This document shows positions 43,223 to 59,804 of a stretch of 64,000 nt of DNA, piece by piece. Numbering within the stretch: the first letter of the stretch is position 1; each line of letters starts with the position of its first letter. The notes beneath the pieces were generated by a model. It had not been told where the DNA came from. It saw nothing but the letters and a program-made list of their open reading frames with translations, and did no database searches. The DNA lies in the NCBI GenBank assembly GCA_023269695.1, contig JAHFPS010000001.1, forward strand, positions 44,366 through 108,365, written 5' to 3'. Made by a program: the position numbers and the translations under genes. The DNA is from Rickettsia sp. (GTDB taxonomy: Bacteria > Pseudomonadota > Alphaproteobacteria > Rickettsiales > Rickettsiaceae).

Positions 43223-43447
43223 TATAGCTAATCCGACTACCATTATTCCTTCACAGAGCCTAGCCATATCTAATAATAATAGAATATTTGAATAAATGAT
43301 AGAGAAAGTAACTCTCTAATCCAGCAATTCTAATTGTTTAACAATACACTAAATATCCCCACCACTAATATCAATAATGACATAATTATTAAAATATTTA
43401 TCTATGCAATGACGCCAGGCTTGTTTTCTCTATGACTTTTAGCTATA
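43223..43447. repeat. A-TIR-bounded composite containing an E-end remnant, the ruvA fragment and a half core
   Basis: TATAGCTAATC at 43223; CCTTCACAGAGCC at 43248-43260; GCAATGACG at 43406; TTAGCTATA ending 43447. Confidence 0.7.
43341..43405 (-). pseudogene. Degenerate duplicate of a ruvA 5' fragment
   Basis: Aligns to 42867-42932 with a 1-nt deletion and a few substitutions. Confidence 0.85.
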
Positions 43448-58746: not shown

Positions 58747-59052
58747 TATAGCTAACTCGACTAACATTTAGCCATAGTAAACTGGCTTCTATTAGCGAGG
58801 AGCAACTTATAGTGGCGACGAAGCAATCCTGTTTTGTGTCATACCTGCGAAAGCAGGTATCTAGGAGACTGTCGGAAATAACTAAAGTAATTCTATATTT
58901 GGCTCTTTTTGGCTGCTAATAAACAGGATTTTCTTGAAATAGGTACACTATTCCTTCAAAAATCCTATTTATTCTCGCCTAAAAATAGCTCAAAATATAA
59001 TTAATTAGTTATCTCCGACAGACTCCTAGATTCCCGCCTACGCGGGAATGAC
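58747..59052. repeat. A left TIR and core whose inner hairpin pair hosts element F
   Basis: TATAGCTAACTC at 58747; ...GGTATC TA [F] TA GATTCCCG... Confidence 0.85.
58864..59026. mobile_element. Element F (163 bp, TA/CTAG target)
   Basis: GGAGACTGTCGGAAATAACTA...TAGTTATCTCCGACAGACTCC. Confidence 0.88.
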
Positions 59053-59056
59053 AATT

Positions 59057-59261
59057 TATAGCTAACCAGAATAAGTTCTAGATATTCCAGGCGTCATTGC
59101 GAGGAGCCACTTTAGTGGCGCGACGCGGCAATCCTGTTTTGTGTCATACCTGCGAAAGCAGGTATCTAGATTCCCGCCTACGCGGGAATGACAACTTACA
59201 ATTGCTTCGTCGTGCTTACACACTCCTCGCAATGACGGAGTAATGCTAATCGGGTTAGCTA
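59057..59261. mobile_element. Shell-A MITE
   Basis: TATAGCTAACC...GGTTAGCTA. Confidence 0.9.
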
Positions 59262-59612
59262 TCATTCTTGAGTAGTAAAGTGTCCTCTATAAGTTCTATA
59301 CAACATGACCCCTCGACGCTCTTCAATTATAGTTTTGCATAGTAAGGCTGAGTCAATAGCTTTTTGTCTTTTGGTAAATTTATATTCTTTCTCTGTACAT
59401 AATTCACTTATACTAATATTTTGCCAAACAAGTCCATCAAAAATTTTTGCTTTAATGTAACCACTTGACTTTAAATTATCATAGTCTCCTTTGTTAAGAC
59501 TTAATGCATCGTCATTTAACAGAAGTTTAATATCCCCAACATATAGCTTTGCTATAGGGTCAACATATTTAATATAGACTATACCGGTTAGTTCTATCGT
59601 GCTAGGTATCAT
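59262..59612 (-). CDS. Small hypothetical protein
   Basis: 116-aa non-repeat ORF between repeat clusters. Confidence 0.65.
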   Translation of the reverse strand: MIPSTIELTGIVYIKYVDPIAKLYVGDIKLLLNDDALSLNKGDYDNLKSSGYIKAKIFDGLVWQNISISELCTEKEYKFTKRQKAIDSALLCKTIIEERRGVMLYRTYRGHFTTQE

Positions 59613-59633
59613 AATCTTCTGTCTTTGTTTCTA

Positions 59634-59792
59634 GGCTCTGTGAAGGTTTCTAAAGTGACCTAATTTTGGCTATTTTTTGCTGCGAATAAACATGATTTTT
59701 TTGAAATAGGTACACTATTCCTTCAAAAATCCTATTTATTCTCGCTAAAAAATAGCTCAAAATATAGAACAATTAGAAACCTTCACAGAGCC
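59634..59792. mobile_element. Element E (159 bp, TA-flanked)
   Basis: GGCTCTGTGAAGGTTTCTAA...TTAGAAACCTTCACAGAGCC, perfect 20-bp TIR. Confidence 0.9.
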
Positions 59793-59804
59793 TAAGATGG
59801 TCAA

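Follow-up and report, generated by a model that had tools for sequence, protein, structure and literature searches.

The window analysed here is a stretch of 64,000 nucleotides on contig C40 of a 1.58-Mb draft genome with 33% G+C, which belongs to an insect symbiont, Candidatus Tisiphia, a relative of Rickettsia. The window contains two short elements, F and E, the first of which splits a Rickettsia-palindromic-element-like (RPE-like) core, and a solo E-type end lies elsewhere in the same stretch. The features are as follows, with the strand given where one applies:

43248..43262, reverse strand: solo E-type end, a shortened remnant of TA plus 13 nt, matching at 15/15 bases including the TA (0 expected by chance)
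58815..58861: left half of the RPE-like core split by F, 96% identical to 59120-59169
58862..58863: TA duplication left of F; target CTAG, present as a single CTAG in the intact paralogous core
58864..59026: element F, a MITE of 163 bp, delimited by direct reading and by its copy family
58864..58885, forward strand: left terminal inverted repeat of F, GGAGACTGTCGGAAATAACTAA, 22 nt
58893..58999: palindromic body of F, alpha type, 92% identical to 59660-59766; from a repeat search and a consensus alignment
59005..59026, reverse strand: right terminal inverted repeat of F, complementary to the left at 20/22 positions
59027..59028: TA duplication right of F, from direct reading and a repeat search
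59029..59058: right half of the RPE-like core split by F, 97% identical to 59166-59198
59120..59198: unbroken paralogous core, the empty site for F, with CTAG at 59166-59169
59632..59633: TA duplication left of E, lying within the inverted repeat of E
59634..59792: element E, a MITE of 159 bp, delimited by direct reading and by its copy family
59634..59653, forward strand: left terminal inverted repeat of E, GGCTCTGTGAAGGTTTCTAA, identical at 18/20 positions to the end of the 856-bp element IS-E of sister genome G005
59660..59766: palindromic body of E, alpha type, from its repeat match to the body of F and a consensus alignment
59773..59792, reverse strand: right terminal inverted repeat of E, complementary to the left at 20/20 positions (a 100% inverted repeat)
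59793..59794: TA duplication right of E; target CTAA

A repeat search of the window and direct reading agree that the bodies of F and E match over 107 nt at 92% identity, which upholds the description of a single palindromic body in both elements given by the first-pass annotation. The outer ~18 bp of the two elements have little in common except GG and CTGT. Each element folds end to end into a single hairpin (z = -11.6 for F and -12.0 for E), and a check of both elements revealed no open reading frame of 50 or more amino acids. A comparison with Rfam returned no family at its gathering score, the only matches being sub-threshold ones to plant microRNA-precursor hairpins, at 50.6 bits against a threshold of 119.

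Both elements are flanked by TA, as had been read at first: the context is CTAG for F, and E has CTAG to its left and CTAA to its right. The placement of F at the CTAG of a core was likewise exact: F sits at the central CTAG of the RPE-like core, and its flanks overlap by the four bases CTAG in the paralogous core, 300 bp away, which therefore represents the empty site. Flank combinations such as CTAG/CTAA and TTAG/CTAG fit a 2-bp duplication of TA with GG...CC ends, not a 4-bp duplication. The E-type end that had been reported to recur at 43248 was recovered there, and inspection of its flank revealed neither a body nor a transposase behind it. F and E are short and non-coding, end in inverted repeats, lie between copies of a duplicated target (with an empty site present in the case of F), and occur in multiple copies, all of which are properties of MITEs. 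A 116-aa open reading frame on the reverse strand (59262-59612) has its start 22 bp outside the left end of E, so that the element occupies the place expected for the promoter of this frame.

Copy families within the genome of the window were compiled by BLAST together with scans for the ends. A genome-wide search for the body and its termini, as had been proposed, returned ~40 copies and derivatives of F, two full copies of E, and the body family between further ends, denoted G3, G3' and G4, which places the shared body well outside what chance would give. The F family comprises 27 full copies of 163 bp with a mean pairwise identity of 94.4%, four near-full copies, five internally deleted forms of 49-104 bp, four solo ends, and several copies that carry nested elements. 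The short forms retain body-derived bases and are internal deletions, not empty shells. The second full copy of E lies at C87:17718-17876 and is 98% identical to that in the window; the remnants of E comprise a diverged copy (C77), a deleted copy (C87:552-648), a copy split by a nested element (C16), and solo ends. Each solo F, E, G3 and G4 end in this genome was checked and proved to be a shortened remnant, with a transposase gene behind none of them. TA is present on both sides of 38 of 39 F copies, and 34 of 38 F targets are CTAG, a sequence that makes up only 3% of NTAN sites genome-wide. At a TA within one F copy (C22:12396-12705) and within one E copy (C16:9643-9839) lies another MITE, whose ends read GACCTCCTTCGAAAC. 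F copies at C26:6864-7309 and C5:11838-12081 host a nested element that has CTCACCTTACGCATGG ends and includes an RPE-like core.

Copies in sister genomes were sampled by their BLAST coverage pattern, and two main body types are present in the combined dataset: alpha, in F, F2, F3 and E; and beta, in G3, G3', G4, T1 and T2, with ~80% identity to alpha as present in F and E. The genome of the window contains the beta body between G3 (GGTTCTGTTGACAAAATT), G3' (GGCTCTGTGAACAAAATT) and G4 (GACACTGTTAACAAAGCTT) ends, and the G3 and G4 cores are ~97% identical over ~85 nt, with outer ~38-40 nt that are unlike. The F2 (GGAGGCTGCCTGCAATAAC) and F3 (GGAGGCTGCCCTAGATAAC) ends are versions of the F ends, in which the two arms change together and graded intermediates connect one version to the next. 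The F2 elements of one symbiont, the Rickettsia endosymbiont of Pseudomimeciton antennatum, mark its genome as being of the Tisiphia type, and within this single genome identical 91-nt cores are present with either F or F2 ends. F is present in 11 of 16 sister genomes, and full copies of E are present only in the genome of the window and in that of the Hybos culiciformis symbiont (G014), where they occupy at least eight places.

The beta body is also present in Rickettsia tamurae, as T1 with GGTTCTGTAAGCATTTC ends and T2 with GAGCCTGTTCACGATC ends, as well as in a mite symbiont and a metagenome-assembled genome (MAG). An exact-pattern scan recovered the conserved centre in few Rickettsia genomes, at two places in R. 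tamurae and one in the mite symbiont, and by this measure the body is rare in classical Rickettsia genomes. The copy in a MAG labelled 'Rickettsia sp.' has F2 ends of the Tisiphia type. T2 in R. tamurae AT-1 (L155:5200-5400), where the beta body lies between GAGCCTGTTCACGATC ends with TTAA flanks, has ends that start with GAG like those of the TNA-duplicating subgroup of the IS5 family, and their resemblance suggests that the body may be fitted to that subgroup too.

Ends are also found around other cargo. F-type ends (GGAGTCTGTCGGAGAAT) surround an unrelated body of 103-125 bp at different places in three sister genomes (G000, G005 and G016), and E-like ends (GGTTCTGTGAACATTTCT) surround an unrelated 143-bp body in three copies. 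Given that the same ends occur with other cargo and the same body occurs with other ends, bodies and ends form a matrix and not fixed pairs. All versions of the ends read TA followed by G(G/A)..CTGT. The ends of F and E had been called unrelated at first, a description that does not survive, since they belong to one class (TA followed by GG..CTGT), the elements are colinear, and the T1, MAG, G10 and G3' elements bridge E to the others.

The DDE-transposase loci of the sister genomes were scanned for these ends, and full-length IS5-family elements were recovered with E-, G3- and G4-type ends:

IS-E: 856 bp, ~20 identical copies in G005, with a 257-aa transposase; ends GGTTCTGTGAAGTTTTCTAA, identical to those of E at 18/20 positions
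IS-G3: 872-879 bp, in G007, G016, G004 and G002; ends GGTTCTGTTGACAAAATTTT, identical to those of G3 over the first 19 bases
IS-G4: 889 bp, in G010, with two reading frames; ends GGCACTGTTAACAAAATA, identical to those of G4 at 14 of the first 16 bases

The IS-E transposase scores 276.8 bits on the NF033580 model, for which the cut-off is 110. All of these elements duplicate TA, mostly at YTAR (CTAG, CTAA and TTAG), as do the MITEs; one copy of IS-G4 lies at ATAT. Between IS-E and IS-G3, identity is 67% at the protein level and 69% at the DNA level, and the IS-G4 protein is 25-31% identical to the proteins of both. The ends of IS-E and IS-G3 are identical at positions 1-8, very unlike at positions 9-19 and similar again from position ~20, and their transposases share 44% identity in the N-terminal 45 residues compared with 75.5% in the catalytic part. 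Such a pattern may reflect a DNA-binding region that has co-evolved with the site it recognises. The genome of the window contains elements of the IS-E/G3 type only as broken remnants (C8:12663-13129 and C17), and so there is no sign of their present-day mobility here.

An IS5-family element with matching ends is thus at hand for E, G3 and G4 but not for F. The search for insertion sequences ending in either repeat, which the first-pass annotation had recommended, succeeded for the E-type ends with IS-E, whereas the approaches used recovered no insertion sequence with F-type ends (of the form GGAG.CTG) in the genome of the window or in 17 Tisiphia genomes; F-type ends with IS-like bases behind them were sought as well, and just two variant MITE copies were recovered. 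The nearest IS ends to the F type are GGGTATGTCGTCAC and GGGCGTGTCATC, from other members of this clade of insertion sequences, and the target signature is the same. Within the genome of the window, a generic search for ends near transposase genes (3 mismatches per 16 bases) was too noisy in AT-rich DNA, and mapping of copy boundaries was used. A resident IS5-family element of ~940 bp with ends GAGCTTGTCCGCAAAC resembles F in 10 of the first 14 bases at a one-base offset; it was rejected as a partner of F because its flanks fit a 3-bp TNA and not TA at CTAG.

Several further insertion sequences were noted alongside this search, in the genome of the window and in sister genomes. The ~940-bp element (C62:189-1100, C1:3721-4661 and C90:179-1115) exists in two variants that are 80-87% identical, contains two reading frames, and is cut by contig ends in many of its copies. 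Another IS5-family element, of ~862 bp with ends GGGTATGTCGTCACGAGATT, is present in ~25 copies in G002 (L161-L163) and also in G007 (L164-L166), and the transposase frame of every listed copy contains one in-frame TAG, for which programmed read-through, a frameshift site or a shared defect are possible explanations. An IS630-family element (PF13358) with ends ATACTAATAATCTTTCAATATAG is present in high copy number (for example at C65:4019-5172 and C1:4775-5810) and lies at the ends of at least 12 contigs (C40, C26, C37, C25, C14, C43, C27, C2, C66, C60, C22 and C87), and is probably the main cause of breaks in the assembly. A 12-13-nt match between the outer body and the inner IS630 end, read by eye and in opposite orientation, was judged to be due to chance.

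The contrast between middles and ends is clearest when consensus sequences are compared. The consensus sequences of F and E are ~94% identical over the central ~103 nt and less than 50% identical over the outer 18 nt on either side. A phylogenetic tree of the 91-nt core places all alpha cores, of the E and F types, in one clade (support 100/99), within which the F, F2 and F3 cores form a clade without E (support 98/94), and the stems of the E and F cores measure ~0.03 changes per site. At the core rate ~1 change is expected in the 36 terminal bases, and more than 20 are observed in addition to changes in length. The ends and outer arms of E group with those of the beta-bodied T1 and MAG elements, whereas the centres of E and F group together, and the subterminal bases of F resemble those of G3. 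Quartet tests of this mosaicism gave p values of 0.005 to 0.29 for a split between centre and outer regions that was chosen after the alignment had been seen, with an end region that is hard to align; the conflict favours exchange but is suggestive only.

Copies with unlike ends are a further line of evidence. Hybrids with a G4 left end and an F right end occupy three differently flanked sites in G005, and two of these have a private internal variant in common. One hybrid sits behind the first 55 bases of an F element and looks like the product of a nested insertion followed by a deletion between homologous bodies. Other hybrids combine a G4 left end with a G3 right end or an F2 left end with an F right end. 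Copies in which one arm has been swapped for the reverse complement of the other are common, as are elements of different families that abut on one shared TA. Each insertion recreates CTAG at both of its borders and thereby invites neighbouring insertions.

The borders of the shared block differ between pairs, lying at ~30 nt for F and E and at ~38-40 nt for G3 and G4, as expected for homologous exchange. A search of 17 Tisiphia genomes with up to 3 mismatches recovered no empty F or E shell, and no body lacking all of the end types was present among 144 sampled copies. Together with the shifting borders, the absence of empty shells favours homologous recombination of nested or abutting elements over the insertion of a discrete body. 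The exchange of shells proposed in the first-pass annotation therefore stands insofar as bodies can be separated from ends, as in the pairs F/E, G3/G4, F/F2 and T1/T2 and in the hybrids with unlike ends, but not as the movement of a discrete cassette. Nor is it a property of this genome in particular, as had been supposed: exchange between body and ends is real and recurrent across a superfamily of elements in Candidatus Tisiphia and Rickettsia, and most of the events are older than the genome of the window.

The E core is ~91% identical to the F cores of every genome, and this equal distance rules out a recent derivation of the E body from local F copies. Given that the E core is sister to the F cores and equidistant from them, and that E and F are common to a sister genome, the event that separated them is old and predates the genome of the window. 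Either E or F could be the derived form.

The strongest challenge to exchange is vertical descent of all of these elements from one ancestral MITE, with a body constrained by a hairpin or cis function and ends that evolve rapidly and in concert as they track transposase specificity. The common formula of the ends and the colinear alignment of the elements are what such descent predicts, and the graded intermediates between F, F2 and F3 ends, the hypervariable patch at positions 9-19 of IS ends between conserved flanks, and the co-variation of the arms (20 of the 50 pairs in the hairpin have changed on both sides, as judged from 11 family consensus sequences) are also consistent with it. The position of the E core as sister to all F cores, and not nested among them, counts against exchange, as it also fits descent in which the ends changed once and abruptly on the stem of F, with no donor. 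Vertical descent, however, would have to account for the excess of terminal substitutions and indels over the ~1 change expected from a stem of ~0.03 per site. It would also have to account for MITE patches that equal IS patches in two separate pairs (8/9 and 11/11 bases), which are unlikely to have arisen by independent point mutation, and for nearly identical G3 and G4 cores that possess the ends of IS lineages with very different transposases. The hybrids with unlike ends and the identical cores with unlike ends show that exchange does occur, and descent without any exchange is considered unlikely, though it carries more weight than the other alternatives.

Less probable still is a nested arrangement, in which the body is itself a TA-targeting element that inserted at the central CTAG of end-only shells and the composite was then moved by its outer ends. 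The junctions of both F and E can be read as C-TA-body-TA-G, as if the body lay in a CTAG, and nesting at CTAG or TA is rampant in these genomes, with F in a core in the window and other elements in copies of F and E. Against this, neither the empty shells nor the end-less bodies that such a history should leave behind were recovered from the 17 genomes and 144 copies described above, the short F forms are internally deleted and not virgin shells, the borders vary from pair to pair, and E and F do not agree in the bases immediately inside the putative junction; the arrangement is thus improbable. The YTAR context had also been attributed at first to enzymes of either the IS5 or the IS630 family. 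F and E would then be MITEs of the IS630/Tc1-mariner type moved by the resident IS630 element, whose many copies, at the ends of many contigs, and whose expected TA duplication fit such a role. The ends of that element are unlike those of F, E, G3 and G4, whereas there are IS5-family elements whose ends match and whose CTAG/TA signature is the same, which refutes an IS630 origin for E, G3 and G4 and leaves it very improbable overall. The IS5 part of the earlier attribution is thus retained and the IS630 part is not.

Recombination is the favoured explanation: F and E are probably type II MITEs with end modules of IS5 lineages, and their shared middle was acquired via recombination between co-resident families, a reading with an estimated probability of about 0.6. 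F and E would be non-autonomous, TA-duplicating MITEs with a strong preference for CTAG that share only their ends with full-length insertion sequences. Each element would consist of an imperfect palindromic body of ~100 bp with an end module of ~18-40 bp on each side, and the end modules would correspond to the binding ends of several lineages within one IS5-family group, characterized by NF033580-type DDE transposases and TA duplication at YTAR. Mobilisation in trans by transposases of the IS-E, IS-G3 and IS-G4 types is presumed from the matching ends, although matching ends alone do not prove mobilisation. The near-identical middle between unlike ends could have arisen by homologous recombination or gene conversion between co-resident families: elements would insert in the CTAG sites of one another or lie end to end across a common TA, copies nested or adjacent in this way would undergo deletion or conversion between their homologous bodies and give rise to new combinations of body and ends, and those combinations with ends usable by some transposase would then multiply.

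A bolder version of the recombination reading, and a doubtful one, holds that what persists as a selfish unit is the palindromic body and not the ends: it would be a portable hairpin cassette, repeatedly refitted with the ends of whichever IS5-family transposase is active. If this were true, the body would be expected to raise mobility or to serve the host, and unlike-end elements that had moved, such as those with G4 left and F right ends, would imply cross-recognition among transposases. It would also offer a possible route of spread for the orphan palindromic repeats of Rickettsiaceae.

Type II prokaryotic MITEs share only their terminal inverted repeats with an insertion sequence (PMC10969869). 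F and E resemble them in being short, non-coding and multi-copy, with inverted ends, a target duplication and an interior unrelated to the insertion sequence, but depart from them in that a single interior is paired with ends from at least three lineages of the IS5 family and, contrary to what is usual, is more conserved than those ends. F and E share GG ends and TA duplication in CTAG, CTAA or TTAG with IS5 elements of the NF033580 type (~860-890 bp, with a DDE transposase that is either a single ~257-aa frame or split into two), but they encode nothing, and no such insertion sequence is intact in the genome of the window. These IS partners, which duplicate TA at YTAR/CTAG, presumably belong to the IS427/IS1301-like subgroup of the IS5 family.

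The Correia elements of Neisseria are a MITE family with TA duplication, whose left and right ends exist as variants that are combined in several ways. The end variants are close versions of one end, and to our knowledge no cognate IS lineages have been assigned to them. Shuffled end subtypes and TA duplication are therefore features that Correia elements share with the F/E superfamily, whereas the end sets of the latter are unlike at more than half of their bases and can be assigned to separate IS lineages. Rickettsia palindromic elements (Ogata et al. 2000, 2002, as summarised in PMC10969869) come from the same bacterial family and are comparable at the level of size (~100-170 bp), hairpin folding and dispersal, and F itself is inserted in an RPE-like core. 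In contrast to these elements, for which no transposase partner is recognised, the F/E superfamily has well-defined ends and a TA duplication and is matched by partners of the IS5 family. No literature on palindromic elements of Tisiphia was found, and a keyword search of titles and abstracts made evident no bacterial MITEs with a shared interior and unlike ends. The superfamily is thus an undescribed, though not revolutionary, variant of bacterial miniature transposons, namely type II MITEs of the IS5 family.

The palindromic repeats found in Rickettsia-like bacteria had no known means of movement, and for one superfamily of them there is now a testable partner in IS5-family transposases with matching ends and target. 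The interior of these MITEs has been kept at 92-97% identity between families and at ~94% between genera, while the ends have been swapped among transposase lineages that are 25-67% identical. This amounts to a natural experiment in how the specificity of a transposase depends on particular positions of the ends, for which positions 9-19 are the candidates. For annotation, elements of the F/E type make CTAG sites into hot spots and explain many of the nested and abutting repeats that lead to assembly breaks in Tisiphia genomes. By taking the ends of another transposase, non-autonomous elements may outlive the loss of the one on which they had depended.
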